A stretch of DNA of 64,000 nucleotides, taken from the IMG/VR virus record IMGVR_UViG_3300021963_000032; one strand, 5' to 3'. Made by a program: the position numbers and the translations under genes. Positions within the stretch are counted from its first letter, which is position 1. Each line of letters begins with the position of its first letter. Shown one piece after another: positions 6,595 to 32,512 of this stretch. The notes beneath the pieces were generated by a model that saw only the letters and a list, made by a program, of their open reading frames with translations, did not search any database and was not told the DNA's origin. The stretch is from a virus. Taxonomy: Duplodnaviria > Heunggongvirae > Uroviricota > Caudoviricetes.

Positions 6595-6597
6595 CTT

Positions 6598-6843: not shown

Positions 6844-6988
6844 AGTATTATTATTACTCAAAAGTAGATTCAACTAATGAGAAGCTTGGATCAGTTATAG
6901 CGTTAAGTAGACTAGGAGCAGCAAAAATGTTTGCTCAAAGAAAAAGACTTGACTTAAAATCCTTCCTTTCCGTGTATAGTATCAGTAG

Positions 6989-7498: not shown

Positions 7499-7500
7499 TT

Positions 7501-8124: not shown

Positions 8125-8570
8125 TAAGTACAAAAGAAATAGCAACTAGACGCATAAGAAAGATTGAGAAGAGATTAGTACCAAAGCTTAGGCATAAGAG
8201 ATGGTACAGAAAAGTAGTTGGAATATTATTAATCCCAGTTGCGCTAACCACACACGGCATTGACCTTCTTATAGAATACTATTACAAAAAGAAGCCTACC
8301 GTGAAAGGAACTAAGCATAGAATCAACTTAGGAAACATCATAGCAGGGTTTACAAACCTAGCGTTTCCAAATGAGGAGGTTGAAAAGATAGCACATAGTA
8401 GAGCTGAGATTTGTGCACGATGCCCTTTCGCAATGAAGACGGGAGTGTATAGTGTGGTTAAAGATAATCGTACAGTTACTATTCAAGGAATGAAGTGTAC
8501 TGAGTGCGGTTGCAATCTAAGTGCCAAAGTAAGAAGCATACACGACACATGCCCAGTAGGAAAGTGGTAA
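8121..8570 (+). CDS. hypothetical membrane-anchored Cys-rich protein
   Basis: N-terminal TM segment. CARCPF...CTECGC...CPVGKW cysteine cluster. Confidence 0.4.
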   Translation: MISTKEIATRRIRKIEKRLVPKLRHKRWYRKVVGILLIPVALTTHGIDLLIEYYYKKKPTVKGTKHRINLGNIIAGFTNLAFPNEEVEKIAHSRAEICARCPFAMKTGVYSVVKDNRTVTIQGMKCTECGCNLSAKVRSIHDTCPVGKW

Positions 8571-8809
8571 AAGGTCCTATAGGGATTCTGGTATTTGATG
8601 ACGAGTTTAATCATATTAAGTTTGTTGTGGATGTGTTGTCTCAGACATTTGGCTTTCCACCTACCCAAGCCTACCAGTGTGCAAACCTAATACATGAGAG
8701 AGGGTCTTATGTAGTTAAAACTCTAACGTATAAGGAGAAGCAGAAAGCTGAGCTACTTAGAAACATTCTTGTATCAAATGGGTTAATTGCTAAAATAATT
8801 CCTCTGTAA
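8549..8809 (+). CDS. clpS: ClpS-like ATP-dependent Clp protease adaptor
   Basis: ILVFDDEFNHIKFVVDVLSQTFGF...AYQCANLIHERGSYVV resembles the ClpS core (vilhNDdyTpmefVv-vL...lseeeAt-imlevHekG). The start is taken at an internal ATG. Confidence 0.5.
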   Translation: MPSRKVVKGPIGILVFDDEFNHIKFVVDVLSQTFGFPPTQAYQCANLIHERGSYVVKTLTYKEKQKAELLRNILVSNGLIAKIIPL

Positions 8810-8847
8810 CTGTTGCAGAATCGTTATCTATGTTGTATCTTTACGGC

Positions 8848-9771
8848 ATGAAAAACGAACAGAACCTAGGATATGCATGCATCAATATGCAGCTCCGTAA
8901 GCAAAACATTTTTACCGGTAGAACTTGTCGTAAAGCTACATTCCAAGAGAAGGGTTTAGATTACGTAGGCGAATTAGGATTGCAGAATGTCCGAGACTTA
9001 TATCAAATCGTCCAGTGGAACAGCCGCAATAACATTAAGATGTATCGTATCGGTTCAGATATCTTTCCGTGGCAGAGTGAGTATAAGTTGGAACAACTAC
9101 CTCAGTATACTAAGATTGTTAACTTGCTCAAAGCTATTGGAGACTATGTTACAAAAGATGGTCAACGACTATCATTCCATCCAGGGCCATTTAATATTCT
9201 AGGATCTACTAAGCCTGGTGTTGTTGAGCGTACTATTGTCGACCTGCAGAATCACTCAGAGATATTTGACTTAATGGGATTCGAACCTAGCCCGTACAAT
9301 AAGATTAACATCCACGTTGGAGCTACGTATGGTGATAAGGAGGGTACATTAGATCGCTGGTGTAATAACTTTAAGCGTCTCAATGAGAGAACACGGAAAC
9401 GCATCACATTAGAGAATGACGATAAGGAGAGTATGTATACGATTGTAGACCTACTATGGGCACACGAACGCGTTGGTGTTCCGTTGGTGTTTGATTACCA
9501 TCACCATAACTGCCACCCAGGAGATATTGATCAACAGACAGCTTTGCAATATGCAATGAGTACTTGGCCAGAGGGAATTAGACCAGCTGTGCATTATTCA
9601 TCTTCTCGTAGGCTAAACGAAGATAGCAGTGTCAAAGTACAAGCACATGCTGATTACATATACGAAAAGATTGATACGTTCGGTTATGATATTGATATCA
9701 TGTTGGAATGTAAAGCAAAGGAGCTTGCCTTGTTGGAATATCGAAAAAAACATAGTATATTAGTAGCATGA
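8848..9771 (+). CDS. uvdE: UV damage endonuclease (UvdE family)
   Basis: LGYACINMQL...KMYRIGSDIFPW...HPGPF...INIHVG matches UvdE. The start is taken at the ATG just after the promoter motif at 8813-8844. Confidence 0.6.
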   Translation: MKNEQNLGYACINMQLRKQNIFTGRTCRKATFQEKGLDYVGELGLQNVRDLYQIVQWNSRNNIKMYRIGSDIFPWQSEYKLEQLPQYTKIVNLLKAIGDYVTKDGQRLSFHPGPFNILGSTKPGVVERTIVDLQNHSEIFDLMGFEPSPYNKINIHVGATYGDKEGTLDRWCNNFKRLNERTRKRITLENDDKESMYTIVDLLWAHERVGVPLVFDYHHHNCHPGDIDQQTALQYAMSTWPEGIRPAVHYSSSRRLNEDSSVKVQAHADYIYEKIDTFGYDIDIMLECKAKELALLEYRKKHSILVA

Positions 9772-9882: not shown

Positions 9883-10152
9883 ATGAAACAAATAACAACC
9901 GGAATAGCAGTAACCTTGGCATTTATGTTGGGAATGTACATTTTAACAAAAGCTAAACCACGCTATCCAGAAAGTACACTATACCATTGTAGGGTGAATA
10001 AGGTAGTAGAAGAGTTTCCACATGGAGGTATCACACCAGATGTAAGGTATAGGTTAACAACAGATGAGGGCTTTGTAGTATTTTCGTACAACCGAGAATT
10101 TTCAGTAGGGGACTCAATCGAAGTCCGAGTAGTAAGAATAAGTAAACAATAA
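9883..10152 (+). CDS. hypothetical membrane protein
   Basis: N-terminal TM helix. Confidence 0.35.
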   Translation: MKQITTGIAVTLAFMLGMYILTKAKPRYPESTLYHCRVNKVVEEFPHGGITPDVRYRLTTDEGFVVFSYNREFSVGDSIEVRVVRISKQ

Positions 10153-10165
10153 AAACCAAATAAGT

Positions 10166-10393
10166 ATGTATTTTACAGTTTCAGTTAAAGTGTCATTCGA
10201 AGATGACAAAGGAAAAGTTAAGAAATCAGTTGAGCGTTACCTAGTAGACGCAATGTCAGTAACAGAAGCGGAAGCTAGAACAACAGAGTTCATGAAGTCA
10301 GATACACGTGACTCAGAGATCGTAGCTGTTAATCAGTCTCGTATTCTTGAAGTGATTAGTCCAAAGGAAACTCCTGATGTTTATGGAAAGTAA
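10166..10393 (+). CDS. hypothetical protein
   Basis: ORF. Confidence 0.35.
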   Translation: MYFTVSVKVSFEDDKGKVKKSVERYLVDAMSVTEAEARTTEFMKSDTRDSEIVAVNQSRILEVISPKETPDVYGK

Positions 10394-10607
10394 TTTTCAA
10401 CCTGATTCTATCGTACAAGCCGTTATTCAGCGGTTTGTCGATAGAGCCAAGTTTGGTCACGAGAAGTATGGAACTGACTTGGATAGAAAGGATCTAACAA
10501 TGGATGAGTGGATCCAACACGCTCAAGATGAATTGCACGATGGTATTCTATATCTTGAGAAAATAAAGCAAACTCTTAAAGAGTTTAACAAAACAATCAA
10601 TATTTAG
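10377..10607 (+). CDS. hypothetical protein
   Basis: ORF. Confidence 0.35.
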   Translation: MFMESNFQPDSIVQAVIQRFVDRAKFGHEKYGTDLDRKDLTMDEWIQHAQDELHDGILYLEKIKQTLKEFNKTINI

Positions 10608-10634
10608 TAGTAACACTAACCAATAACACACAAG

Positions 10635-10865
10635 ATGATTACATGCAAAGTATGTGGTAATGAGATACCAGAGGGAAGATTAAAAGCAGTACCAGGAACA
10701 AAAACATGCGTACAACATTCAACAGCAACTAAGTTCGCTGCAAATGTAGTAAGCTACGGGAATGCCGAGGCAGGCGACCTTGTCAACGAAATTGAAATCG
10801 TAAGAGATGCAAAAGCAGTTGAGCAATTGAATCACTACTCAAAACAAATTGGTTCATATAAGTAA
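10635..10865 (+). CDS. DksA/TraR-family C4 zinc-finger protein
   Basis: CKVCGNEIPEGRLKAVPGTKTCVQHS pattern. Confidence 0.45.
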   Translation: MITCKVCGNEIPEGRLKAVPGTKTCVQHSTATKFAANVVSYGNAEAGDLVNEIEIVRDAKAVEQLNHYSKQIGSYK

Positions 10866-11062
10866 TGGCTGACGATCGTTCTGAGATATTTAGAGCTATG
10901 AGTAATAGGTATAGATTAAAGGTTATACTAGCTGAGCTAGGTACCGAACCGAACCTAACTCAAATATCATTTATCCAGGATTGCATCGAGATAGCTAAGC
11001 TTGAACCAGACAGTAGCACTAATAAAATTATACAAGATGCTTTTGAGAGAATTAGAAGATAA
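10865..11062 (+). CDS. hypothetical protein
   Basis: ORF with ATGA overlap. Confidence 0.35.
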   Translation: MADDRSEIFRAMSNRYRLKVILAELGTEPNLTQISFIQDCIEIAKLEPDSSTNKIIQDAFERIRR

Positions 11063-11399
11063 GATAACAAGCATAAGACCAGTATACGATAAGACTGTCT
11101 TAGGAGGGCACTTTGAAGTAACCTTTGGACCAAATGTAGTATTCAATCTATCATTCCCAGCATTCTTGAAAAACAAGTTTGAAGAGGATCAGAAACTGAA
11201 AGACTATGTACGAAATAGAAAAGATGATGCAGAGATAAGTGCATCGGGAATTGTCAACAACTTATACTACATTGGATGTCCAGTGGATGAGTGGGTTGAA
11301 GACTACTTTGTAAACGTACGCAGTAAGGTATCACAGTTTGATGCACTACTTCAGTTATTCAATCACTTAAAGAGTTTCGGAGATGACAATACAAAATAA
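11037..11399 (+). CDS. hypothetical protein
   Basis: ORF. An internal start is chosen to limit overlap. Confidence 0.35.
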   Translation: MLLRELEDKITSIRPVYDKTVLGGHFEVTFGPNVVFNLSFPAFLKNKFEEDQKLKDYVRNRKDDAEISASGIVNNLYYIGCPVDEWVEDYFVNVRSKVSQFDALLQLFNHLKSFGDDNTK

Positions 11400-11793
11400 C
11401 GATCAAGACTTTTCACATATAGATTACACTGAGTGTCCTATTTGTGGTAATGAAGCAATCAGTGAAGTAGTACATGAAACCCACGAAGAGAATATACAAT
11501 GCCACAGCTGCGGTTATGCTAGACGAATGTCGATCATCGATGGCAAGCTAGATATGCAGGAGTATGTCAATCACGGGTGCTATAAGGTACAGATGAAAGG
11601 ATCACCCACATTAGAGTGCGGATCGTTCACAACACCAGAAGCAGAACAAGCGTTTGTAGAATTAATAAATAATTTAGGAGAAAAAGTTGCACATGCGGAA
11701 TATTCTAAGTATATTAACGAAACAATCGAGACCACAGTGGTCGTAGACGGAGAAATACATAAAATACAAATAGATGAGCAAGAACAGCAGTAA
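11383..11793 (+). CDS. hypothetical zinc-ribbon protein
   Basis: CPICGN...CHSCGY. Confidence 0.4.
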   Translation: MTIQNNDQDFSHIDYTECPICGNEAISEVVHETHEENIQCHSCGYARRMSIIDGKLDMQEYVNHGCYKVQMKGSPTLECGSFTTPEAEQAFVELINNLGEKVAHAEYSKYINETIETTVVVDGEIHKIQIDEQEQQ

Positions 11794-12110
11794 GCAGTTA
11801 GTAGAGCAAGTACAGTCATGGGTTAGCTGGATTGCAGCAGTAGGAAGAAGAAATCAAAATAATCCAAAGAAATACGAAAAAAAAGTTGCATACGAGAGTA
11901 AAAAGGAGTATGTTAGTAAAAAGAGTTAATACTTATAAGGGAATGAAAGCATTGAACAACATATTACGCAATACAACGATTAGCATGTCGAGACATGAAT
12001 GGTCAGCGTGTGGAGTGCCGTTTAATGTCCTTGATCCAAAACAGTATCAATCACAATCTCGGGTTTTAGTATGAAGTAACGAATAAAAAAGTTAAATTAT
12101 ATATAAAAGG

Positions 12111-12137
12111 AACCCGAGTCACAAGCTCGGGTTTTTT
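12111..12137 (+). terminator. Rho-independent terminator
   Basis: ACCCGAGtcacaagCTCGGG hairpin followed by TTTTTTT. Confidence 0.6.
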
Positions 12138-12141
12138 TATT

Positions 12142-12215
12142 GCTTTCTTAGCTCAGTTGGTAGAGCGCTTCACTTGTAATGAAGATGTCATCGGTTCGAC
12201 TCCGGTAGAAAGCTC
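12142..12215 (+). tRNA. tRNA-Thr(TGT)
   Basis: Hand-folded cloverleaf. GCTCAGTTGGTAGAGC D-arm, anticodon loop CTTGTAA, GGTTCGACTCC T-arm. Confidence 0.7.
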
Positions 12216-12249
12216 AGAACAAATGTTCTTTGACATATTGGCTTTAAAT

Positions 12250-12321
12250 TTTCCCCTCGTCTAATCGGCAGGACGTCTGGTTTTGGGCCAGAAGATCGAG
12301 GTTCGAACCCTTGGGGGAAAA
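12250..12321 (+). tRNA. tRNA-Gln(TTG)
   Basis: Acceptor TTTCCCC/GGGGAAA, anticodon loop TTTTGGG, T-loop TTCGAAC. Confidence 0.65.
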
Positions 12322-12328
12322 CAATAAT

Positions 12329-12412
12329 GGAAGTTTAATTAAGCTGGCGCTTAACCTAGTCTTGAAAACTAGTGGTACCGAAAGGTATGGGGATCGATAC
12401 CTCAGGCTTCCT
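12329..12412 (+). tRNA. tRNA-Ser(TGA), type II
   Basis: Acceptor GGAAGTT/GGCTTCC, anticodon loop CTTGAAA, long variable arm. Confidence 0.55.
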
Positions 12413-12539
12413 CTAAATCAATACAGAGTTGAATGATACGAGCCTCCAAAGTTCGAAAGGAGTCATGGTTTGATTGAAGCGAGCAACTGTGCGCTATACA
12501 AAAAGTGTTTGCATTCGGCAAATACTACACAGTTGACAA

Positions 12540-12612
12540 CTAGGTGTGGGAAAGTTGGTAATCCGCGTGGTTTGGGACCACGAGACCGCAGGTTCGAGCC
12601 CTGCCACTTAGA
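12540..12612 (+). tRNA. tRNA-Pro(TGG)
   Basis: Anticodon stem CGTGG/CCACG, loop TTTGGGA, T-arm GCAGGTTCGAGCCCTGC. Confidence 0.65.
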
Positions 12613-12681
12613 CTATTTTTTAATCACTAAAACCCCAGAAATTATGGAAAGTGACAAGAGCGACAAGAGTCGCAAACAGCC

Positions 12682-12755
12682 GATCTCGTAGCTCAGTTGG
12701 CTAGAGCACCTCACTTTTAATGAGGGAGTCGTGGGTTCGAGCCCCACCGGGATCA
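12682..12755 (+). tRNA. tRNA-Lys(TTT)
   Basis: Acceptor GATCTCG/CGGGATC, anticodon loop CTTTTAA. Confidence 0.7.
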
Positions 12756-12764
12756 CAAACAAAT

Positions 12765-12837
12765 GCTCCTTTAGCTCAGTTGGTAGAGCGCTGCCCTTAC
12801 ATGGCAGATGTCGCAAGTTCGAGCCTTGCAGGGAGTA
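12765..12837 (+). tRNA. tRNA-Val(TAC)
   Basis: Anticodon stem CTGCC/GGCAG, loop CTTACAT. Confidence 0.65.
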
Positions 12838-12847
12838 CAAATAATAT

Positions 12848-12931
12848 GCCGTAGCGCTGAAGTTGGAGAGTCGGGGCAGACTGTAAATCTGTTGTCGTAA
12901 GGCTGAGTAGGTTCGAATCCTACCTGCGGCA
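12848..12931 (+). tRNA. tRNA-Tyr(GTA), long variable arm
   Basis: Acceptor GCCGTAG/CTGCGGC, anticodon loop CTGTAAA, T-arm GTAGGTTCGAATCCTAC. Confidence 0.65.
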
Positions 12932-12936
12932 CAATT

Positions 12937-13008
12937 GGACAAGTAGCTCAGGGGTAGAGCAAGCGACTGTTAATCGCTGGGTCGGAGGTTCGATCCCTCC
13001 CTTGTCCG
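12937..13008 (+). tRNA. tRNA-Asn(GTT)
   Basis: Acceptor GGACAAG/CTTGTCC, anticodon loop CTGTTAA. Confidence 0.7.
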
Positions 13009-13166
13009 CAATGATATAATGTTGGGTTTCCTGGTAGTAACGGTATTAACCATGGTAAGTAAGCTACAAGATTCTAGTAATAAGCACCAGATGGATTCCG
13101 TGCGACTAAAGTATCAATAGTTTTAAGGGTGGCTCTAGTTCTATAAAAACGTAATTGCCTCCACCA

Positions 13167-13240
13167 GCGCTTATAGCTCAATTGGTTAGAGCACCCGCCT
13201 GATACGCGGAAGGTTATTGGTTCGATTCCAGTTAAGCGCA
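13167..13240 (+). tRNA. tRNA-Ile(GAT)
   Basis: Acceptor GCGCTTA/TAAGCGC, anticodon loop CTGATAC. Confidence 0.7.
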
Positions 13241-13298
13241 CAAAAAGAGGAATAACTAGTGTGGGTGCCTCAACTGCTGCAGCAGTACCACACTCAAT

Positions 13299-13384
13299 GG
13301 AGAGTAAACCTTGATGGCGATAGGGCTTGCCTGCTAAGCAATGTGTACCCGTAAGGGTATTTGGTTCGATTCCAATGCTCTCCG
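13299..13384 (+). tRNA. Probable type II tRNA, tentatively Ser(GCT)
   Basis: Acceptor GGAGAGT/GCTCTCC, T-arm TTGGTTCGATTCCAA, candidate anticodon loop CTGCTAA. The D-arm is atypical. Confidence 0.4.
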
Positions 13385-13389
13385 CAGCA

Positions 13390-13460
13390 TGCCGTAGGTC
13401 CTGGGTGGACGAGGTGGGCTCATATCCTGCTTTGGATTGGTTCGAACCCAATATACGGTA
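13390..13460 (+). tRNA. tRNA-Met/Ile2 family (CAT), copy 1
   Basis: Anticodon loop CTCATAT, T-arm ATTGGTTCGAACCCAAT. The acceptor pairing is slightly irregular. Confidence 0.5.
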
Positions 13461-13470
13461 CAACAAAGGT

Positions 13471-13635
13471 ATGATGAATATGAAAAAAGTAATAACAGGA
13501 AGTTTCGAATCATCGAGAGATGTACTTCGAGGAAAGGCTCCATCGCCCAAAGGACGATTGGACTGGCGTGGTCAGGCCGTACAAGTTTACAACAAGTTCG
13601 CTAAGAAGTTGACTAAACGTAAGTCAGCGTTGTGA
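13471..13635 (+). CDS. Small basic protein (54 aa) embedded in the tRNA array
   Basis: ATG preceded by AAAGG. The product is MMNMKKVITGSFESSRDVLRGKAPSPKGRLDWRGQAVQVYNKFAKKLTKRKSAL. A strong terminator follows immediately. Confidence 0.35.
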   Translation: MMNMKKVITGSFESSRDVLRGKAPSPKGRLDWRGQAVQVYNKFAKKLTKRKSAL

Positions 13636-13640
13636 ATTGA

Positions 13641-13670
13641 CCCTCCCCACTTACGGAGTGGGGTTTTTTT
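13641..13670 (+). terminator. Rho-independent terminator
   Basis: CCCTCCCCACttacgGAGTGGGG followed by TTTTTTT. Confidence 0.65.
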
Positions 13671-13674
13671 AAAT

Positions 13675-13748
13675 GGTGGTTGTAGCTCAATCGGAAGAGC
13701 GCCAGATTGTGATTCTGGAGGTAGTGGGATCGAAACCCACCATTCACC
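13675..13748 (+). tRNA. tRNA-His(GTG) with encoded G-1
   Basis: Anticodon stem CCAGA/TCTGG, loop TTGTGAT. An extra 5' G pairs with the C discriminator. Confidence 0.6.
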
Positions 13749-13754
13749 CAATAT

Positions 13755-13840
13755 GCCTCGGTGGTGAAATTGGTAAACACGCTGGATTTAAGCTCCAGTG
13801 GGCAGTAATGTCCTTGCGGGTTCGAGCCCCGCCTGAGGTA
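13755..13840 (+). tRNA. tRNA-Leu(TAA), type II
   Basis: Anticodon stem CTGGA/TCCAG, loop TTTAAGC, long variable arm, T-arm GCGGGTTCGAGCCCCGC. Confidence 0.65.
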
Positions 13841-13989
13841 CTAAAGATGATACAAAGCGTAGAATGGTAAGCGTGGAGAGACGTGGCGCAAGGGTACACA
13901 CTAAGGATAAGCAATCAGTGCTCAACTCTCTAATGGTGTGTGAAGCCACTGAGGCAAGATTCCTGATAAAGCCATTTATCATCTTTTTT

Positions 13990-14061
13990 GCCCACATAGT
14001 TCAATGGATAGAACGTCCGGCTACGAACCGGGAGATAGGAGTTCGAATCTCTTTGAGGGTA
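13990..14061 (+). tRNA. tRNA-Arg(ACG)
   Basis: D-arm GTTCAATGGATAGAAC, anticodon stem TCCGG/CCGGG, loop CTACGAA. Confidence 0.6.
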
Positions 14062-14066
14062 CAAAT

Positions 14067-14139
14067 GCCCCTATAGTTCAACTGAATAGAACATCCCCCT
14101 TCTAAGGGGAAGATTGGAGTTTGACTCTCTGTGGGGGTA
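14067..14139 (+). tRNA. tRNA-Arg(TCT)
   Basis: Anticodon stem TCCCC/GGGGA, loop CTTCTAA. The T-loop TTTGACT is atypical. Confidence 0.5.
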
Positions 14140-14176
14140 CGATCCGATGTGTGATCCGAGCTAGGTCGGATAATTT

Positions 14177-14249
14177 ACTCCAGTAGCTCAGTTGGTAGAG
14201 CACCGGATTCCAAATCCGGGTGTCGGAGGTTCGAGTCCTTCCTGGTGTG
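14177..14249 (+). tRNA. tRNA-Trp(CCA)
   Basis: Anticodon stem CCGGA/TCCGG, loop TTCCAAA, T-arm GGAGGTTCGAGTCCTTC. Confidence 0.65.
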
Positions 14250-14317
14250 CATAAGACGGGAGGCGAGTGTTGAGGGTACAACCGTTAGGATACCTCAGCC
14301 AAGTCCTCCCCGAAGAA

Positions 14318-14390
14318 GGACAGGTAGCTCAGTCGGTAGAGCACGGCGCTGAAGACGCTGGTGTCGGGGGTTCGAATCCCTCTCTGTCCA
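14318..14390 (+). tRNA. tRNA-Phe(GAA)
   Basis: Acceptor GGACAGG/TCTGTCC, anticodon loop CTGAAGA. Confidence 0.7.
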
Positions 14391-14395
14391 CAAAT

Positions 14396-14465
14396 GCTCA
14401 GGTTGATCTTGGAGGTCGGTAGGTCTGCAAAACTTACAGAGTTGGTTCGATTCCAACCTTGAGCT
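14396..14465 (+). tRNA. tRNA-Cys(GCA), compact 70 nt
   Basis: Acceptor GCTCAGG/CTTGAGC, anticodon stem TAGGT/ACTTA, loop CTGCAAA, short D-arm. Confidence 0.55.
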
Positions 14466-14509
14466 CAAAAATAATTGTTCATAACTTTGTAATTATTTTG
14501 ATATAACTG

Positions 14510-14546
14510 TTGCAAACACCACAACAATGGAGTATCTTTAGGTATA
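14510..14546 (+). promoter_or_regulatory. Conserved phage promoter motif (TTGCA...TATCTTTAGGTATA) driving the tRNA sub-cluster
   Basis: CTGTTGCAAACACC...AGTATCTTTAGGTATAAG, preceded by the GTTCATAACTTT upstream element. Confidence 0.55.
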
Positions 14547-14591
14547 AGAAAGAGCAAAGGAGTTCATTGACGTAGTGGTAAACAAACAAAC

Positions 14592-14679
14592 AGTCAGGTG
14601 ATAGTAATTGGTAACTGCGGTGGTGCGTTAAGAGCGCTTAATATCCATCGGATTACAGGTTCGAGTCCTGTCCTGACTA
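14592..14679 (+). tRNA. Non-canonical tRNA-like element, 88 nt, anticodon unresolved (possibly Leu-like type II)
   Basis: Perfect acceptor AGTCAGG/CCTGACT and canonical T-arm ACAGGTTCGAGTCCTGT. The internal region (GGTGG...21 nt...CCATC) does not fold into a standard anticodon arm. Confidence 0.4.
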
Positions 14680-14699
14680 TAAAAAAGTTAACAAAAGTG

Positions 14700-14730
14700 T
14701 TGACTTATCGAAACAAAAGGAGTATATTTA
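14700..14730 (+). promoter_or_regulatory. Promoter variant (TTGAC...TATATTTA) with duplicated leader GTTCATTGACATAGTGGTAAACAAACAAAC
   Basis: Near-duplicate of the 14510-14591 promoter-leader unit, placed upstream of the second tRNA sub-cluster. Confidence 0.5.
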
Positions 14731-14765
14731 TAAAAGTTCATTGACATAGTGGTAAACAAACAAAC

Positions 14766-14847
14766 GCGCGAGTGGTGGAATTGGTAGACACGCCGGATTT
14801 AGGATCCGGTGCCGAAGGGTTTGAGGGTTCGAGTCCCTCCTTGCGTA
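14766..14847 (+). tRNA. tRNA-Leu(TAG), type II
   Basis: Anticodon stem CCGGA/TCCGG, loop TTTAGGA, long variable arm, T-arm GAGGGTTCGAGTCCCTC. Confidence 0.65.
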
Positions 14848-14943
14848 CAAAAAGATCAACTAGTCACTGTAATCAATCAGTGGGCGTCAGTAAGTATTCT
14901 GAGCGACGTTTAAATCCTGACAGCAATGTTGATTTTTTATTTT

Positions 14944-15017
14944 GCAGGCATAGCTCAATTGGCTAGAGCACTAGCCTTCCAAGCTGGGGGTTGTGGGTTC
15001 GAGTCCCACTGCCTGCT
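14944..15017 (+). tRNA. tRNA-Gly(TCC), with 3' CCA encoded
   Basis: Acceptor GCAGGCA/TGCCTGC, anticodon loop CTTCCAA, T-arm GTGGGTTCGAGTCCCAC followed by TCCA. Confidence 0.7.
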
Positions 15018-15022
15018 CCAAT

Positions 15023-15096
15023 GGGGGATTAGCTCAGCTGGCTAGAGCACTGCACTTGCACTGCAGGGGTCAACGGTTCGAATCCGTTATCCTCCA
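15023..15096 (+). tRNA. tRNA-Ala(TGC)
   Basis: Anticodon stem CTGCA/TGCAG, loop CTTGCAC, T-arm AACGGTTCGAATCCGTT. Confidence 0.7.
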
Positions 15097-15101
15097 CAAT
15101 T

Positions 15102-15173
15102 GGTCCATTGGTGTAGTGGCTAACATACCACCCTGTCACGGTGGTGCCGCGAGTTCGATTCTCGCATGGACCG
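15102..15173 (+). tRNA. tRNA-Asp(GTC)
   Basis: Acceptor GGTCCAT/ATGGACC, anticodon loop CTGTCAC. Confidence 0.7.
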
Positions 15174-15183
15174 CAAACAATAC

Positions 15184-15255
15184 GCTGCCATCGTCTAACG
15201 GTTAGGACCTATGGTTTTCATCCATAAAATCGGAGTTCGATTCTCCGTGGCAGTA
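15184..15255 (+). tRNA. tRNA-Glu(TTC)
   Basis: TCGTCTAACGGTTAGGAC D-arm, anticodon stem TATGG/CCATA, loop TTTTCAT. Confidence 0.7.
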
Positions 15256-15350
15256 CAAAGATCGGAGTAATTAACCGATCCTAACAAGTAAGTATGCATA
15301 TAGCTTAAAGAGATTTGACGTCACTAATTTCTGCATGCTTCTCTTGATTA

Positions 15351-15426
15351 ACTACTTATGGTGTAAATTGGTTTGCACACGGGTCACACGGCCCGAGGGT
15401 TATAGGTTCGAGTCCTATGGGTAGTT
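15351..15426 (+). tRNA. tRNA-like with atypical anticodon loop, identity unresolved
   Basis: Acceptor ACTACTT/GGGTAGT and T-arm ATAGGTTCGAGTCCTAT are canonical. The anticodon stem CGGG/CCCG encloses a 6- or 8-nt loop (T)CACACG(G). Confidence 0.35.
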
Positions 15427-15432
15427 CAACAT

Positions 15433-15505
15433 AGCGGGGTGGAGAAGATGGTATTCTCGGCGGGCTCATAACCCGAGGACGCTGGTTCGAGTCCGGCCCC
15501 CGCTA
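15433..15505 (+). tRNA. tRNA-Met/Ile2 family (CAT), copy 2
   Basis: Acceptor AGCGGGG/CCCCGCT, D-stem GAGA/TCTC, anticodon loop CTCATAA. Confidence 0.6.
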
Positions 15506-15601
15506 CAAATACGTAAACCTAAGTACCCATACCGCTCACGGTGGGCTAAGTAAGATACAATTTCGTACTGCGGGAAGTAGAATGCTTAGGAGCGTGTTTA
15601 C

Positions 15602-15684
15602 GGCTAGGAGTGTAAAAGGCGTCGGTGCTGATTCCATCTGTTGAAGATGGTTGCTCATTGTAGGTTCGAATCCTATCCTAGCTG
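15602..15684 (+). tRNA. Putative type II tRNA-like element, anticodon unresolved
   Basis: Acceptor GGCTAGG/CCTAGCT and T-arm GTAGGTTCGAATCCTAT. The internal hairpin CCATCtgttgaaGATGG could be the anticodon arm (TTG) or the variable arm. Confidence 0.3.
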
Positions 15685-15689
15685 CAGAG

Positions 15690-15763
15690 GGTCCTTTAGC
15701 TCAGTTGGTTAGAGCAGCTCGCTCATAACGAGAAGGTCCCAGGTTCGAATCCTGGATGGACCA
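15690..15763 (+). tRNA. tRNA-Met/Ile2 family (CAT), copy 3
   Basis: GCTCAGTTGGTTAGAGC D-arm, anticodon loop CTCATAA, T-arm CCAGGTTCGAATCCTGG. Confidence 0.6.
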
Positions 15764-15772
15764 CACAAAAAG

Positions 15773-17224: not shown

Positions 17225-17620
17225 ATGGAAACAACAATGTTTGCTTTAGGGATTCTTGCGATGATAATGGTGATGTTAATTACTGTTGTTGTTGTTGGTA
17301 TTGTTAAGGTATTTAAGATGAGTAAACAAATCAAAGATTTCTACACATACCTGCATGAGTCAGAAAGATCTACAAGTGATTACATTCGTAGAGTAGAGCA
17401 AAATACTGATATGCAGTTTCGGGATGTTAATAGAGATATCAACATGATCGAACATACGATGATGAATCGAATGGATCACGGATTGATAGCAGTAAATGAT
17501 CAAATTACAGATTCAGTTACTCAAAGTAATTCGTATACAGACAAACGAATCGATAAGCTAATTGATACCTACTTTGAGGTACAAGAAGCAAAACAATCAA
17601 AAAAACTAATTAAAGGATAA
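17225..17620 (+). CDS. hypothetical membrane protein
   Basis: N-terminal TM helix (LGILAMIMVMLITVVVVGIV). Confidence 0.4.
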   Translation: METTMFALGILAMIMVMLITVVVVGIVKVFKMSKQIKDFYTYLHESERSTSDYIRRVEQNTDMQFRDVNRDINMIEHTMMNRMDHGLIAVNDQITDSVTQSNSYTDKRIDKLIDTYFEVQEAKQSKKLIKG

Positions 17621-17664
17621 ATCCGTCAAAGCTTCTACGCTTTCTATTTATATAAAACAATCAT

Positions 17665-19650
17665 ATGAAACATATTAGTACAATTCTATTTGTATTGATC
17701 TTTGCTACAAGCTTTGGTCAGTACTGTCCTGCATTAGGACCAGATCAACTCCTTCCATGTGGGTTAGGAACAACGACGTTAACAGCTGACCTATCTCAGT
17801 GTGGACCTGGAGGACCTTCTCCAAAACAAACCACGGATTACCTAGTTAGTAGTATTCCCTATGTTGCTCAAGCTAACACGGGTACTAACATATTCATGAC
17901 AGATGATTCTCAGCAAGGACCTTTTAATATAGGATTCAACTTTTGCTTCTTCGGATCAACCTATACTCAATTCTATATAGGATCGAATGGTTGGATATCT
18001 TTCTCAGGAGGGCAGCCAACTACATTTACCTCTTCACCAATTCCAACAGCAAACCCTCTAGTACCTAAGAATTGTGTAATGGGGCCATGGCAGGATTGGC
18101 ATCCAGGACTTGGTGGTCAGATTAAATATCAAACAACTGGAGTAGCTCCATGTAGAAAATTAACAGTAAGTTGGATAGGTGTACCTATGTTTAGTTGTAC
18201 GGGAAACCAAGGAACATTCCACATTGTGGTCTATGAGTCAACTAACGCAATCGAAACCTATATTCAAGATAAACCTGCATGTACACAGTGGCAAGGTGGT
18301 ACCGCAGTAGAAGGTATACACAATACAGCTGGTTCAATAGGGATAGCCGTTCCTGGAAGAAACTCCACAGCATGGACTGCAAACAATGATGCTTGGAGGT
18401 GGACTCCAAATGGTCCTCTAGTTAATCCAGTACTGACTTGGTACCAGGTAGGTAATCCAGTAGCTATTGGAACTGGACCATCTATAACAGTCACACCACC
18501 CGCTGCAGGTGCTCAGTATACTTGTCGTTTTGTTTATCCTATTTGTAATGTAGGATGGGCTACTTGTAATGCTTTTGCAGGATTGGGACCAGATACAGTA
18601 TTCGTACAACCTGGACCTCCGTATCCAGTAGTAAGTCCAATTGCAGGTTCAGATACTCTATGTTCGTATTCAACAAATGAGCTATATACAATTATCAATC
18701 AACCTGGAGTAAATTACTTATGGGACGCTGTTGGGACTATTACGTCAGGTCAAGGTGCAGATAGCATTACTATTGATTGGAATGCAATTGCTCCAGGATT
18801 CATTCCTGGTGGGGTTATGGTTACTCCGGAAGCAAATGGTTGTGTAGGTGCACCTGCTTCTTTTGATTTATTTATACTAGATGTTGTTCCAATTATTCAA
18901 CCGATAGGACCATTCTGCGAATATGACGATAGCACTCAGCTAGTTGGTAATCCATTAGGTGGAGCATTCTCAGGAGTAGGAGTTTCTAATACTTACTTCA
19001 ATCCACAAAACGCAGCTGGCGTTGATACAATTACTTATACATACACTCTCAGTGGCTGTACGTTTGATACAACAACTCTTGTTACCGTGTACCCAAAACC
19101 TACCTTAGATTCTATTACTCCTCACAATACATTCTTTGAGATATGTGAGCTAGAAGTGGCCACAATAACATGGGATGCAGATGGTTATCCTGCAAATGGA
19201 TATACGGAGTGGACTTGGTTAGGACAGAATACTCAGCAACCATTATTATCTGTAACAGTACCTTGGGATTCAGCAGGAACATATAATGTGTCTGCAGTCT
19301 ATTGGGCTAATGGTTGTGTGTCGGATCCACAAACTGCTTACATCACAGTAATTCAGTGTCCGGAAACTTTATTCTATATTCCTAATTCATTTACACCAGA
19401 TGGTAACGAATGGAATCAAGTATGGCAACCTATAATTACTAGTGGGATAGATCCATACAACTATCAGGTGTTGGTGTACAATCGTTGGGGAGAAGTTGTA
19501 TTTGAGTCTCACGACATTGAAGTTGGATGGGATGGAACTTATAAAGGTAGGCCATGCATGGAAGGTGTATACTTTTACATAGTAAGCTGTACCGATACTA
19601 AAACAGCTAAGAAGTTTAACCTACAAGGACATATTTCTTTATTAAAATAA
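17665..19650 (+). CDS. Secreted Cys-rich protein with T9SS type-B C-terminal sorting domain (gliding-motility-associated CTD)
   Basis: Signal peptide MKHISTILFVLIFATSFGQ. The C-terminus FYIPNSFTPDGNEWNQVW...YNRWGEVVFES...GWDGTYKG matches the TIGR04131-like CTD motif. Confidence 0.55.
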   Translation: MKHISTILFVLIFATSFGQYCPALGPDQLLPCGLGTTTLTADLSQCGPGGPSPKQTTDYLVSSIPYVAQANTGTNIFMTDDSQQGPFNIGFNFCFFGSTYTQFYIGSNGWISFSGGQPTTFTSSPIPTANPLVPKNCVMGPWQDWHPGLGGQIKYQTTGVAPCRKLTVSWIGVPMFSCTGNQGTFHIVVYESTNAIETYIQDKPACTQWQGGTAVEGIHNTAGSIGIAVPGRNSTAWTANNDAWRWTPNGPLVNPVLTWYQVGNPVAIGTGPSITVTPPAAGAQYTCRFVYPICNVGWATCNAFAGLGPDTVFVQPGPPYPVVSPIAGSDTLCSYSTNELYTIINQPGVNYLWDAVGTITSGQGADSITIDWNAIAPGFIPGGVMVTPEANGCVGAPASFDLFILDVVPIIQPIGPFCEYDDSTQLVGNPLGGAFSGVGVSNTYFNPQNAAGVDTITYTYTLSGCTFDTTTLVTVYPKPTLDSITPHNTFFEICELEVATITWDADGYPANGYTEWTWLGQNTQQPLLSVTVPWDSAGTYNVSAVYWANGCVSDPQTAYITVIQCPETLFYIPNSFTPDGNEWNQVWQPIITSGIDPYNYQVLVYNRWGEVVFESHDIEVGWDGTYKGRPCMEGVYFYIVSCTDTKTAKKFNLQGHISLLK

Positions 19651-20011: not shown

Positions 20012-20344
20012 ATGAAAGAGACAATTAACCAGACAACAGTATCGTTTATAAAGAAACATGCTAAGAATGCGTTGAGCATTATTGTAGCGGTATCAATCGC
20101 AACAGCATCATTCAAGTTAGGTGCCAAGTATGGTAACACTGAGAAGAAAGAAGCTGCAGTAGAAAACCCATACGCACATGCATTCTCTCCTGAGGAGATC
20201 TCGATTGCAGTGAACGAAAGTAATGAGTTGATCATGATCGAACGAGCTACTGGAAAGTACATTGTGTATAGTGATAAGATTGGTCAGACAATTTTTGGAA
20301 TGTATGCTAACCGCATTAGTCAAGAGGTGAATGCTGGTAAATAG
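20012..20344 (+). CDS. hypothetical membrane protein
   Basis: TM segment ALSIIVAVSIATA. Confidence 0.35.
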   Translation: MKETINQTTVSFIKKHAKNALSIIVAVSIATASFKLGAKYGNTEKKEAAVENPYAHAFSPEEISIAVNESNELIMIERATGKYIVYSDKIGQTIFGMYANRISQEVNAGK

Positions 20345-20858
20345 TATTAAAATCGGTATTGCAGTGGCATCAGTTGCTGTCGCTGCACTTACCGTTACTA
20401 CTCCGGAAACAGAAACAAAAACAACAAACACACAAGTAAGGATTCCGGATAGTATCGATCAAGGTTCTCCTGCAAGTTTGCAGATGTACAATTACATTAA
20501 AGCATACGCAGATACGTTTGACATTCCATTGCGCTATGCATTTGGTATTGCCAACACTGAGACTGGTTACAATGGACCATTCCACTGGAAGTACAATCCA
20601 GCACAAACATCATGTGCAGGTGCAGTAGGACCAATGCAAGTAATGGTATCAACAGCTAGATGGATTAACAAAGATGGTGTATCAAAAGAGAGGTTACGAA
20701 CTGATATTAGATACAACGTCTACACTTCAATGAAATTATTACACAAGCTATTTATTAAAAACAGAGACTGGAAGCTAGTGTTCGGAGAATACAATACCGG
20801 ACGTCCTTGTGTTAATGGATACGCTCACAAAGTTTACAACTACAAAGCTAAATGGTAA
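20331..20858 (+). CDS. Lytic transglycosylase (SLT domain) with signal/TM N-terminus
   Basis: ANTETGYN...GAVGPMQV resembles the SLT ES...GAxGLMQ motifs. Confidence 0.45.
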   Translation: MLVNSIKIGIAVASVAVAALTVTTPETETKTTNTQVRIPDSIDQGSPASLQMYNYIKAYADTFDIPLRYAFGIANTETGYNGPFHWKYNPAQTSCAGAVGPMQVMVSTARWINKDGVSKERLRTDIRYNVYTSMKLLHKLFIKNRDWKLVFGEYNTGRPCVNGYAHKVYNYKAKW

Positions 20859-27827: not shown

Positions 27828-28577
27828 ATGCCAAAGATTTACAAAGTAGGAGGTTGCGTTAGGGATACGTTTCTAGGTATTGATTCGAAGGATATTGATT
27901 TTACCTTTGTGTTAGATAACATTGACAGATCCGTAGAGGAAGGGTTTCAGATAATGACTGAGTACCTAGAACATAAGGGATTCACAATCTTCTTATCGAC
28001 TCCACAGATGTTTACAATTAGAGCTAAGTTCCCAAGTACAGACGGACCTTATGCTAGATACTGCGGTATGGTTGCAGACTTTGTGTTAGCGAGAAAGGAA
28101 GTTGGATATGTTCCAGGAACGAGACAACCGATTCTTGAGTTAGGTACGTTAGAAGATGACCTTATTAGAAGAGACTTCACTCTGAATGCACTAGCTGTAG
28201 ATGAGGACGGAAATCTAATTGATCTTTTCAATGGCGTTAACGATCTAAAGGTAGGCTTACTCAGAACTCCATTAGATCCAAAAGTCACAATGATGGATGA
28301 TCCATTGAGGTTTTTAAGAGCTTTGAGGTTTAGTATCACTAAAGACTTTACGATTGCTCTTGAGATATTCGATGCTATACAAAACCAACCTGAGATTCTA
28401 GAGAAGCTAGAAAAAGTAGTCTCTGCAGAGAGAATTAGAGAAGAGGTTTTCAAAATGATGAATGCTGACACTGTAAAGACTTTGGAGTTGTTTAGAATCG
28501 TAGAAGAGATGGTTCCAGGATTCACTAAGCTAGTATTCAGCAAAGGTCTATGGTTGAAACCAACATTTGAACAATAA
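27828..28577 (+). CDS. cca: Class II nucleotidyltransferase: CCA-adding enzyme / poly(A) polymerase head domain
   Basis: VGGCVRDTFLGIDSKDIDF and RRDFTLNAL signatures. Confidence 0.65.
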   Translation: MPKIYKVGGCVRDTFLGIDSKDIDFTFVLDNIDRSVEEGFQIMTEYLEHKGFTIFLSTPQMFTIRAKFPSTDGPYARYCGMVADFVLARKEVGYVPGTRQPILELGTLEDDLIRRDFTLNALAVDEDGNLIDLFNGVNDLKVGLLRTPLDPKVTMMDDPLRFLRALRFSITKDFTIALEIFDAIQNQPEILEKLEKVVSAERIREEVFKMMNADTVKTLELFRIVEEMVPGFTKLVFSKGLWLKPTFEQ

Positions 28578-32476: not shown

Positions 32477-32483
32477 CAACCAA

Positions 32484-32512
32484 CACCTAAATAAATTAAC
32501 CCTCCTAGTGAG
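32484..32512 (+). terminator. Rho-independent terminator
   Basis: CCCTCctagtgAGGG followed by TTTTTTT. Confidence 0.6.

Follow-up and report, generated by a model that had tools for sequence, protein, structure and literature searches.

The window analysed here, a 64,000-nucleotide stretch of phage DNA, contains a gene whose sequence lends good support to a role as phage-encoded cargo of the host type IX secretion system (T9SS), encoding a protein exported by Sec and carrying a host T9SS type-B sorting signal. The gene is the ORF listed at 17665..19650 on the plus strand (661 aa), exactly the coordinates given in the original prediction, and is an accessory, 'moron'-like gene, an optional element that is present in some and absent from other close phage relatives. 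Our preferred reading, to which we assign a probability of about 0.7, is that the gene derives from host surface proteins and that its product is exported via Sec and the host T9SS and displayed on the infected cell. The assignment as Sec-exported T9SS cargo is based on profile HMM matches, the behaviour of the signal peptide and its agreement with the Q-rule, conserved cysteine pairs, and bacterial homologues that are themselves T9SS cargo.

The type-B C-terminal sorting domain (CTD) occupies residues 566-661 and, with the stop codon, positions 19360..19650 (+). Pfam PF13585 (CHU_C) matched residues 572-649 with an E value of 5e-15 and 55.8 bits (cut-off 27), and the NCBIfam T9SS type-B sorting domain model TIGR04131 matched residues 572-660 of 661 with 50.9 bits (cut-off 35), covering positions 3-84 of the 85 in the profile; the match is therefore full-length and lies at the extreme C-terminus. 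Both scores exceed the curated cut-offs, bearing out the type-B domain of the original prediction by the very HMM search it had proposed. Invariant residues of the CTD include N574, F576, P578, N584, G594, the N606-R-W-G609 run, W622, G624, Y636 and G655. According to Paillat et al. 2025, secretion by type-B CTDs requires five conserved motifs, A-E, and the full-length HMM match together with these invariant residues suggests that the motifs are present here. The CTD is nonetheless the fastest-evolving part of the protein, its identity being 36-59% with the remaining phage copies and 27-49% with type-B CTDs from bacteria. We dropped the idea that the phage CTD mimics that of its bacterial homologues, or shares their shuttle, as its identity to the CTDs of those homologues (27-44%) is no higher than that to unrelated type-B CTDs (24-49%).

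At the other end of the protein, residues 1-18 (17665..17718, +) form a predicted Sec signal peptide. The N-terminus, MKHISTILFVLIFATSFG followed by QYCP, has the shape of a signal-peptidase-I substrate, with n, h and c regions and a small residue at -1, and residues 2-20 are helical in the AlphaFold model; no lipobox was found in the signal peptide. Although the segment exists in 83 distinct versions, its form is retained in all 116 homologues: 113 have K/R within the first five residues, 110 carry a small residue (S/G/A/T) at -1, and 115 have Gln at +1. Cleavage is predicted before Gln19, following the Q-rule that is specific to exported proteins of Bacteroidetes (PMC5837995, PMC10653852), and the Bacteroidetes-type signal peptide originally proposed is thus well founded.

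Between the two export signals lies a part of the protein that the original prediction did not mention. The conserved functional part is a host-derived head domain, rather than the CTD. This previously unannotated N-terminal head (residues 19-320; 17719..18624, +) is the best-conserved part of the protein, and consists of a Cys-knotted N-terminal stretch, a beta-sandwich core (residues ~60-255) to which no solved structure is close, and, at ~256-320, a small Ig-like sub-domain. A cluster of polar residues in the head is invariant (D80, D81, N108, Q143, D144, R164, E191, K203, H219, R232 and N233), and the head matched no enzyme family or enzyme fold. The nidogen-like NIDO domain (PF06119), extracellular as the head is predicted to be, gave weak Pfam matches (best E = 1e-4) in 12 of the 32 head domains of homologues and no match at E <= 5 in the copy from the window.

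The head is followed by a stalk of three beta-sandwich (Ig/PKD-like) domains, delimited from AlphaFold secondary structure at residues 321-400, 401-480 and 481-565 (18625..19359, +); many homologues match PF19408 (PKD_6) in this region. Each stalk domain contains one cysteine pair (333/393, 418/465 and 494/551) that is invariant in an alignment of 53 sequences, as the paired cysteines of the original prediction would lead one to expect. Every cysteine of the mature protein upstream of the CTD is in fact invariant and paired by domain, which is expected of a periplasmic or extracellular protein. The descriptions 'Cys-rich' and 'many Ig-like repeats' were overstated: the protein has 20 cysteines in 661 aa (3.0%), and its repeats amount to the three middle beta-sandwich domains plus the one Ig-like sub-domain that ends the N-terminal region.

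The gene traces back to a family of proteins found on the cell surface of Bacteroidota. The phage protein has its head domain in common with T9SS surface proteins encoded on Bacteroidota chromosomes; these are longer (about 1,040-2,700 aa, as against 661 aa) and have an identical layout of signal peptide, head, stalk and type-B CTD. Combinations of the head with type-A CTDs also exist. The bacterial homologues are encoded in chromosomal contexts, on contigs of up to 1.6 Mb, with neighbours that include UvrD, GH3, GT1, Wzy and other CHU_C proteins. The phage copies form one clade (bootstrap 94/100), and this separate, well-supported clade, together with codon usage typical of the window, argues against recent horizontal transfer from a host.

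The source of the window is a large phage of at least about 170 kb. The window contains 23 tRNAs and a tmRNA, nearly every ORF lies on the same strand, and its auxiliary genes are of the kind found in jumbo phages (ThyA, NAMPT, RNA ligase, DNA ligase and UvdE); a GH19 endolysin is also present. Gene families of the window are also found on IMG/VR viral contigs, and a 635-kb 'uncultured phage' record encodes a full-length homologue of the cargo protein that is 52% identical; taken together, these features establish the phage context that had been proposed. GenBank phage records matching the cargo protein number only three, and the phage lacks a relative in culture. When 24 kb of the window were compared with GenBank phages by megablast, no match was returned, and this is therefore a phage without a close sequenced relative; even for a conserved AAA+ protein, identity is no higher than 47%, in matches to Microcystis phage Mel-JY01 and a 484-kb uncultured phage. 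A PHROGs search returned nothing for the cargo protein, its immediate neighbours or the other genes preceded by the CTATTTATA box described below. We infer that the host belongs to the Bacteroidota: the records of all 226 genomic relatives are titled Bacteroidota, save a few oddly labelled bins (for example, Competibacteraceae and 'Akkermansia'), the signal peptides follow the Q-rule, and the promoter boxes in the phages are of the Bacteroidota -33/-7 type.

As the nearest homologues outside viruses come from bacteria, and MAG bins contain some of the phage-type copies (L005, L036), we considered whether the gene might be bacterial DNA mis-joined to phage sequence in a chimeric assembly. This is very improbable: an identical protein with the same flanking genes is found on an independent 160.6-kb contig (ERZ27296343 k141_1337282) and on a Logan contig, relatives of the gene occur on at least 195 IMG/VR contigs, its codon usage is like that of the rest of the window, and the phage copies form a clade of their own that comprises more than 1,200 protein clusters.

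The gene is optional, since closely related phages have or lack it. The original prediction passed over this variable presence, the location within a tail module in one lineage, and the dependence of type-B cargo on a shuttle. In one large lineage it is located between the tail tube and baseplate genes, inserted exactly between the terminator hairpin of the tube gene and the late box of the gene c3. Among tail modules with tube proteins that are 76-99% identical, the tube gene is followed by the cargo gene in seven and directly by c3 in eight; one locus (L165) lacks the gene even though its tube protein is 98.8% identical to that of a gene-bearing locus (L003). The gene also occurs in at least five other contexts, including that of the window, which is common to L088-L090.

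Motif comparison points to transcription of the gene from a putative promoter-like box of its own, of the late-gene class. The box CTATTTATATAAAA (17644..17657, +) ends 8 nt before the ATG and is a member of a motif class that is over-represented. Its core TATTTATA is shared with the box that precedes the sheath, tube and tape-measure-like genes of related phages, which makes a late-class promoter probable. The motif CTATTTATA occurs eight times in the window, always on the plus strand, against an expectation of 1.04, a count reached in 0 of 100 shuffles; in L003, ATATTTATAA likewise occurs eight times (0.85 expected), always immediately 5′ of tail genes. Boxes of a similar kind precede the gene in other lineages of phages, and in most lineages a terminator hairpin is found upstream of the gene, an AT-rich box before its ATG, and a separate box before the next gene. 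The enrichment is confined to the 9-mer core, as a longer 13-mer box allowing two mismatches was unenriched (9 matches, 6.4 expected). A scan for sigma-70 promoters and terminators around the gene found sites no more numerous than in shuffled sequence; we therefore judged that scan uninformative for this organism and relied on motif over-representation.

The position between tube and baseplate genes and the late-type box would likewise fit a protein of the virion, for instance a tail-associated Ig-like adhesin or a decoration protein assembled in the cytoplasm, in which 'CTD' and 'signal peptide' would be an unused bacterial inheritance. Several observations make this unlikely. A relic would decay, but the signal peptide is constrained as working ones are, with Gln at +1 in 115 of 116 homologues, and the invariant cysteine pairs indicate an oxidizing compartment. 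The absence of the gene from near-identical tail modules, such as that of L165, implies that it is dispensable for tail building; in the window and at least four other lineages it lies outside the structural modules altogether, and an upstream terminator demarcates it in lineage A, where the next gene has its own late box. A Hoc-like Ig decoration protein would be expected to have no cleavable export signal and to be a constant member of the structural module; the cargo gene departs from this expectation on both counts.

The neighbourhood of the gene in the window invites another explanation, in which the protein would be lysis or envelope-breaching equipment, an outer-membrane-directed partner of membrane proteins encoded nearby. 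The flanking genes encode a single-pass membrane protein of 131 aa (17225-17620), a membrane protein of 110 aa, and an SLT transglycosylase that has a membrane anchor at its N-terminus (20331-20858); both the 131-aa protein and the SLT enzyme accompany the gene in L088-L090, and late-class expression would fit. We rate this possibility as decidedly slim, given that the window has a separate, better-defined lysis cassette with the GH19 endolysin (57218-60284), that most phage lineages have no lysis genes near the gene, that the bacterial homologues are ordinary surface proteins, and that close relatives dispense with the gene. That cassette also bears on an argument made in the original prediction, which took an outer-membrane beta-barrel encoded at 59817 as support for envelope-directed functions. 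The barrel itself is plausible, with a signal peptide cleaved between LSA and QD and a C-terminal Phe, its only family match being sub-threshold (DUF2715, 16.3 bits against a cut-off of 22); the protein ends the lysis cassette, which explains it more simply than does a link to the cargo gene.

The cognate PorP/SprF-like shuttle of a type-B cargo protein is usually encoded beside the cargo gene. We searched iteratively, starting from a confirmed PorP_SprF protein (185 bits), and found no PorP/SprF gene in the window, nor any within 10 kb of the phage copies; the gene product is therefore orphan cargo, whose secretion would depend on a shuttle encoded elsewhere by the host or the phage. Nor did the bacterial homologues generally have such a neighbour: a porP/sprF gene lay within 10 kb in only 3 of ~75 loci, on the opposite strand, and we rejected linkage for this reason. 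Studied type-B CTD proteins remain associated with the cell surface through PorP/SprF-like proteins, and orphan substrates have an orphan shuttle in common (PMC9143113, PMC12618676). Fjoh_1677 of Flavobacterium johnsoniae is such an orphan shuttle, and cognate CTD-shuttle pairs reached ipTM values above 0.8 (PMC12618676). The retention at the surface, and a head-stalk-anchor layout that is that of an adhesin, speak against a soluble factor released by Sec and T9SS, a lectin or an enzyme that would act on polymers, cells or the environment without being anchored to the cell. Such a factor would use the same export signals as a displayed protein, and the invariant polar residues of the head might make up a site for catalysis or sugar binding; glycoside hydrolases are among the phage T9SS cargo already published (PMC7468147), and viral contigs carry PorP-linked secreted peptidases and a pectate-lyase-like protein. 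No enzyme family or enzyme fold was detected either, and we consider release improbable, if slightly less so than a place in the virion.

Our data are consistent with a model of surface display where, late in infection, the protein would be exported by Sec and cleaved before Gln19, which would be cyclized as in other exported proteins of Bacteroidota. The protein would then be oxidized in the periplasm and pass through the host T9SS translocon, and a PorP/SprF-type shuttle, of the host or from a part of the phage genome outside the window, would hold it on the outer surface with the head facing outwards. The phage head probably binds the same ligand as the host heads, on a much shorter stalk, because it retains their conserved residues. 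Superinfection exclusion, receptor masking and surface remodelling, the roles originally suggested, are plausible, and resistance of Flavobacterium to phages maps to gliding/T9SS genes (bioRxiv 10.1101/2020.10.02.323337; PMC9804748). More tentatively, the re-coated surface of the infected cell may have its T9SS- or gliding-dependent receptors or adhesion sites occupied or masked, so that superinfection would be limited and fewer progeny lost to infected cells and debris. Another possibility is that the infected cell gains an adhesive property. Late expression is unusual for superinfection exclusion. More speculatively still, the gene could belong to a programme of T9SS hijack in large freshwater Bacteroidota phages, with the cell re-surfaced late in infection by a short-stalked copy of the host's adhesin head that blocks superinfection and re-adsorption of progeny. 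Such phages would supply T9SS cargo themselves (of type B here and of type A elsewhere) and, in some genomes, PorP/SprF shuttles as well; the head copy would compete for the ligand of the host adhesins or for the shuttles that anchor them, and the fast-evolving CTD would track host shuttle specificity, with host range then depending first on adsorption and second on the CTD.

Export as predicted would mean that viruses make use of the type-B, shuttle-dependent branch of T9SS, beyond the type-A branch noted once before, and that phages are served by a conserved and widespread gene family taken from adhesin-like proteins of their hosts. At 661 aa, against host proteins of several thousand residues, this natural cargo offers a compact tool for the study of CTD-shuttle recognition. 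The gene is also a marker of large phages of Bacteroidota in lake and activated-sludge settings, natural pairs in which one of two near-identical phages lacks it provide a direct test of the value of surface remodelling to a phage, and its head domain represents an uncharacterized, highly conserved module of Bacteroidota surface proteins.

Envelope-directed morons and receptor-masking proteins are exemplified by Lom and Bor of phage lambda, Llp of T5, and Cor of phi80 and N15, all small outer-membrane proteins or lipoproteins of enterobacterial phages. The likeness to the cargo gene lies in an optional gene among structural genes, of variable presence and, putatively for the cargo gene, with its own transcription signals, whose product is a known or predicted envelope protein dependent on host export; in contrast to these proteins, to which it has no relation in sequence or fold, the cargo protein is predicted to take the T9SS route, with receptor masking as a possible effect. 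The top whole-chain structural match of the protein is the 'grappling hook' filament GhpA of Aureispira (PDB 9fly, 9flp and others; Foldseek E = 2e-13). Both are T9SS-associated surface proteins of tandem Ig-like domains, but the match is limited to a generic Ig array at 13-21% identity, in which the head domain has no counterpart, and GhpA is a filament of ~5,000 aa used in predation whilst the cargo protein has 661 aa.

Further parallels are found among the type-B cargo of Bacteroidota, including SprB and three orphans (Fjoh_1123, Fjoh_1720, Fjoh_4934) of Flavobacterium johnsoniae and PG1035 of Porphyromonas gingivalis, which likewise combine a signal peptide with a TIGR04131/PF13585 domain and also place a head and Ig-like stalk before the CTD. 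The orphan substrates of F. johnsoniae resemble the cargo gene further in having no adjacent porP/sprF-like gene (PMC12618676). The protein described here differs in being phage-encoded and much shorter (661 aa versus about 1,040-2,700 aa), with an export route predicted from its sequence. Phage-encoded T9SS cargo is itself a known phenomenon: 'Cryophage' genes carry type-A signals (Bellas et al. 2020; PMC7468147), and crAss-like cluster 2 phages have ORFs with T9SS sorting domains (PMC6949934). Like the gene in the window, these are variable or accessory genes with a host T9SS sorting signal, proposed to alter the surface or secretome of the infected cell. Cryophage cargo has type-A CTDs, with PorV and A-LPS anchoring, on recognizable enzymes (endoglucanase, GH39 and PA14), whereas the present gene joins an uncharacterized host-derived head to a CTD of type B, dependent on a specific PorP/SprF shuttle, in a large and conserved phage clade. 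What the cargo gene adds to these earlier reports is thus a widespread type-B form of phage T9SS cargo, rather than a new principle.

The 661 aa protein encoded at 17665..19650 on the + strand, the position and length given in the original prediction, carries a type-B C-terminal sorting domain (CTD) of the T9SS (type IX secretion system). As had been proposed, the CTD is of the type IX kind: it scored above the cut-off against both Pfam PF13585 (CHU_C; E = 5e-15, 55.8 bits, cut-off 27) and NCBIfam TIGR04131 ('T9SS type B sorting domain-containing protein'; 50.9 bits, cut-off 35), the latter match spanning profile positions 3–84 of 85 and residues 572–660 of 661. In the family-model search, the protein did not match type-A sorting-domain models. 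The predicted Bacteroidetes-type signal peptide also appears to be real, because its sequence varies while its form persists, as working signal peptides evolve. Among 116 homologues with complete N-termini, this segment (the first 14–21 residues) took 83 distinct sequences, with a column identity of 0.45 versus 0.8–0.9 immediately after it; yet a Lys/Arg start was kept in 113 of the 116, a hydrophobic core was retained, and position −1 was small (S/G/A/T) in 110. The +1 residue was Gln in 115/116, which is the 'Q-rule' for Bacteroidetes signal-peptidase-I substrates (PMC5837995, PMC10653852). The mature N-terminus was nearly invariant (Q[YFHN]CPxLGPDQxLPCG), and no lipobox was found in the N-terminal segment.

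AlphaFold2, supplied with a 53-sequence alignment, returned a confident model (mean pLDDT 83.5) with a helix at residues 2–20 and all remaining structure beta. The paired cysteines expected in beta-rich repeats were present as one invariant pair in each of the three middle beta-sandwich domains (333/393, 418/465 and 494/551), and all 11 cysteines of the N-terminal region were 100 % conserved among phage copies, a pattern that would fit periplasmic or extracellular folding. The description 'Cys-rich' holds in so far as the protein is enriched in cysteine (20 residues, 3.0 %), but the content is not extreme.

In the homologue alignment, column identity peaked at residues 19–320 (0.79–0.92), a region without annotation that we call the head, compared with 0.5–0.7 in the three middle domains (the stalk) and approximately 0.65 in the CTD. 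The CTD is the fast-evolving end: between the window copy and other phage copies, CTD identity was only 36–59 %, versus up to 74–85 % for whole proteins. No Pfam model covered the head of the window copy, and a head profile found nothing among all PDB sequences. In a large protein database the profile found 409 relatives, all unnamed, whose C-termini differed (type-B CTD, type-A CTD (PF18962), P-domain or PKD). When 32 diverse head domains were scanned singly, 12 gave weak matches to NIDO (PF06119; best E = 1e-4) and five matched PF19081 ('Ig-like domain CHU_C associated') over the last head sub-domain. A viral structure library contained one similar fold (E = 1e-8, TM 0.51), an uncharacterized protein encoded by an uncultured Caudovirales phage from fresh water. 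On these results, we consider the head an uncharacterized extracellular module that is possibly NIDO-like. A longer phage variant (approximately 731–739 aa), seen in homologues P0015, P0021, P0060–P0062, P0102 and others and at 10001–12202 of locus L004, has a Cys-rich SprB-type repeat (PF13573) added directly after the head region.

The window itself is phage DNA, as the original prediction assumed. Its ORFs lie nearly all on one strand, a single array of 23 tRNA genes (12142–15764) covers most amino acids, and a tmRNA (62106–62486) encodes the tag peptide ANVELSTWTFEDVMAFVGGELAVAA. The gene set (thymidylate synthase, NAMPT, a PRPP-synthetase-like protein, RNA ligase, DNA ligase, UvdE, a MoxR-type AAA+ protein, an SLT transglycosylase and a GH19 endolysin) is one commonly seen in large T4-like or jumbo phages, and many of the genes are related to genes on IMG/VR viral contigs. 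No close sequenced relative of the phage was found. An identical cargo protein with the same neighbours is encoded on an independent 160.6 kb metagenome contig; because that contig stops about 4.5 kb upstream of the cargo gene and the window reaches about 17.7 kb upstream, the phage genome is at least approximately 170 kb. A PolyA_pol/CCA-adding-type enzyme (27828–28577), a PNKP-like HAD protein and an RNA ligase are encoded nearby; with the tRNA array and tmRNA, they suggest a set of functions for maintaining and repairing tRNAs. An SPFH/Band-7 membrane protein, the PRPP-synthetase-like protein and NAMPT (nicotinamide phosphoribosyltransferase) are grouped at 31532–35910 as a predicted NAD+ salvage set; such sets have been reported for jumbo phages. 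The region 57218–60284 looks like a lysis cassette, comprising a holin-like 82 aa two-TM ORF, the GH19 endolysin (phrog_181, E = 1e-64), a phrog_3000 protein, a 133 aa two-TM ORF, a 245 aa membrane protein with a four-helix-bundle domain, and a 155 aa ORF at 59817 whose product has a Q-rule signal peptide (LSA|QD), is beta-strand-like in sequence and ends in Phe. The genes for the last two overlap by 4 nt, and their products could be an inner-membrane/outer-membrane spanin-like pair.

More than 1200 relatives of the cargo protein were found in the protein database, the top 120 of them full-length at 49–85 % identity. Among IMG/VR viral contigs, at least 195 carry a gene for a relative, compared with only three GenBank phages, including the 'uncultured phage' records LR745206.1 (635 kb; its best query-matching place is our locus L001) and LR756502.1 (642 kb). 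Each of these two records had three separate query-matching places, and both megaphages therefore probably encode several CTD-bearing proteins. A scan of prokaryotes at one genome per species gave 226 relatives, nearly all from Bacteroidota MAGs (Crocinitomicaceae, Flavobacteriales, Sphingobacteriaceae, Chitinophaga-labelled and Bacteroidia), mainly from lakes, groundwater and activated sludge according to record titles, and some on contigs of 0.9–1.6 Mb. The bacterial proteins share the plan of the phage protein (signal peptide, head, stalk, type-B CTD) at approximately 1040 to 2716 aa, and lie in stable chromosomal surroundings with UvrD, a GH3 enzyme, a GT1 glycosyltransferase, an O-antigen-ligase-like protein, an M23 peptidase and other CHU_C proteins. 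Key polar and aromatic head residues are conserved between phages and bacteria (D80-D81, GSNGW106-110, N136-C-x-MGPWQDW145, R164, E191, K203, H219 and R232-N233), and the phage copy therefore most likely retains the biochemical function of the host head domain.

In a neighbour-joining tree of head domains, all phage copies, including that of the window, formed one short-branched clade (bootstrap 94/100), with long-branched bacterial sequences standing apart; mean head identity was 0.79 among phages, 0.58 among bacteria and 0.56 between the two. The clade takes in two copies binned with Crocinitomicaceae MAGs, one on a 241 kb contig (JBILRE010000002.1, L005) and one on a 127.5 kb contig with short phage-like genes (mean 215 aa; L036). 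Both contigs probably belong to phages and were binned together with the host, which would point weakly to Crocinitomicaceae as a host group. The window copy clusters with those of phages carrying the gene in a tail module (73–74 % identity), and not with viral contigs L088–L090 (64 % identity), which share its gene neighbourhood, suggesting that the gene has been exchanged between phage lineages. Its codon usage is typical for the window (rank 6 of 47), and it is therefore long-resident.

One large lineage raises the question of whether the cargo protein is a structural tail protein. At its 47 loci the gene keeps one position inside the tail module, following two sheath genes and the tail tube gene (phrog_4542) and preceding a gene we call c3, after which come baseplate-hub-like, tape-measure-like, baseplate wedge subunit and GH19 tail lysozyme genes. 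However, the slot between tube and c3 need not be filled. Among tail modules gathered via the tube protein (76–99 % identical), the tube gene was followed by the cargo gene in seven and directly by c3 in eight (gap 24–129 nt), and one of these eight shares 98.8 % tube-protein identity with a phage that has the gene. Where the slot is empty, the c3 promoter-like box comes straight after the tube terminator hairpin; where it is occupied, the cargo gene, with its own AT-rich box, sits exactly between the two. A further 52 modules had other genes downstream of the tube and no cargo copy within 6 kb. One module (L171; IMGVR_UViG_3300044448_008292, 3865–5630) had other genes between tube and c3, three consecutive ORFs that form a 'split' version, each encoding a separate signal peptide that ends in YSQ: a 205 aa Cys-rich head that shows no relation to the common head and has no Pfam match, 187 aa corresponding to Ig-like domains 1–2, and 191 aa corresponding to Ig-like domain 3 plus a type-B CTD. 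In other lineages, the window's included, the gene occupies at least five unrelated neighbourhoods; in the window it lies between a 131 aa membrane protein gene (17225–17620) and, 0.7 kb downstream, an SLT-domain transglycosylase gene (20331–20858; 46 bits, N-terminal hydrophobic anchor MLVNSIKIGIAVASVAVAALTV), and all three are found together in L088–L090. Given this presence/absence pattern and variety of neighbourhoods, the cargo gene is optional and mobile, like morons, rather than a part that the tail requires.

Three recurrent promoter-like motif classes occur in the window. Class 1 (CTGTTGCAAA, approximately 20 nt, TAGTATATTTA) lies upstream of genes at 19717, 26916, 31292 and 37164; its box, which resembles the Bacteroidota −33 TTG/−7 TAnnTTTG promoter, would suit early genes transcribed by the RNA polymerase of the host. 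Class 2 (GACCTTTAGGTATA) precedes 27828, 34399, 39605, 42072, 48392, 48707, 51227 and 52076, and class 3 (CTATTTATA) precedes 17665, 50786, 53582, 56371 and 60318. CTATTTATA occurs eight times, all on the + strand (1.04 expected; 0/100 shuffles reach eight), and one site ends 13 nt before the cargo-gene ATG; the adjoining genes bear the class 1 or class 2 boxes. Further CTATTTATA sites gather around the lysis cassette (56–60 kb). In tail-module locus L003, ATATTTATAA occurs eight times (0.85 expected), and each copy lies immediately upstream of a sheath, tube, c3, tape-measure-like or similar gene. From motif class only, we infer that the cargo gene belongs to the late-transcribed genes.

Type-B cargo requires a PorP/SprF-like outer-membrane shuttle, which also retains it at the surface; where no shuttle gene is linked to the cargo gene, an unlinked 'orphan' shuttle is used, and cross-talk is possible for similar CTDs (PMC9143113, PMC12618676). 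A search seeded with a confirmed PorP_SprF protein found no such gene, either in the window or close to any of the phage copies, and the protein is thus an orphan cargo, which would depend on a shuttle of the host or on one that the phage encodes beyond the window. The latter is not far-fetched, because three contigs labelled viral by IMG/VR encode genuine PorP_SprF proteins: L248 (IMGVR_UViG_3300027899_000001, 405 kb; 6039–8969, 200 bits), near a 287 aa protein whose sorting domain is type-A (Por_Secre_tail, 30.3 bits); L249 (151–8248), after three M43-peptidase/Fib_succ_major secreted proteins; and L247 (7998–14768), before a 1911 aa beta-helix (pectate-lyase-like) protein. From the cargo anatomy and established T9SS biology, we propose that the protein would be exported by Sec, cleaved before Gln19, disulfide-bonded, translocated by the T9SS and displayed on the cell surface by a shuttle. 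A late-made, optional, short-stalked copy of a host adhesin-like head would fit surface remodelling. Phage-resistance mutations in Flavobacterium usually fall in gliding and T9SS genes (bioRxiv 10.1101/2020.10.02.323337; PMC9804748), so a reasonable guess is that the cargo masks or occupies surface structures related to these systems. Alternatively, it may serve adhesion or be let go as a soluble factor.

Phage-encoded T9SS cargo as such is already known. Sorting-domain ORFs are present in some crAss-like phages (PMC6949934), Q-rule proteins have been noted in phages of P. gingivalis (PMC10367356), and variable genes of 'Cryophage' carry CTDs, there termed a unique occurrence (PMC7468147). Full-text searches found no literature on T9SS in jumbo, huge or mega phages, and no match for 'gliding motility-associated C-terminal domain' with phage. 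Whereas the Cryophage CTDs are type-A, the window gene carries a type-B signal; this signal, the conserved head of host origin, the clean presence/absence polymorphism, and a phage family of this size that forms a single clade are new.
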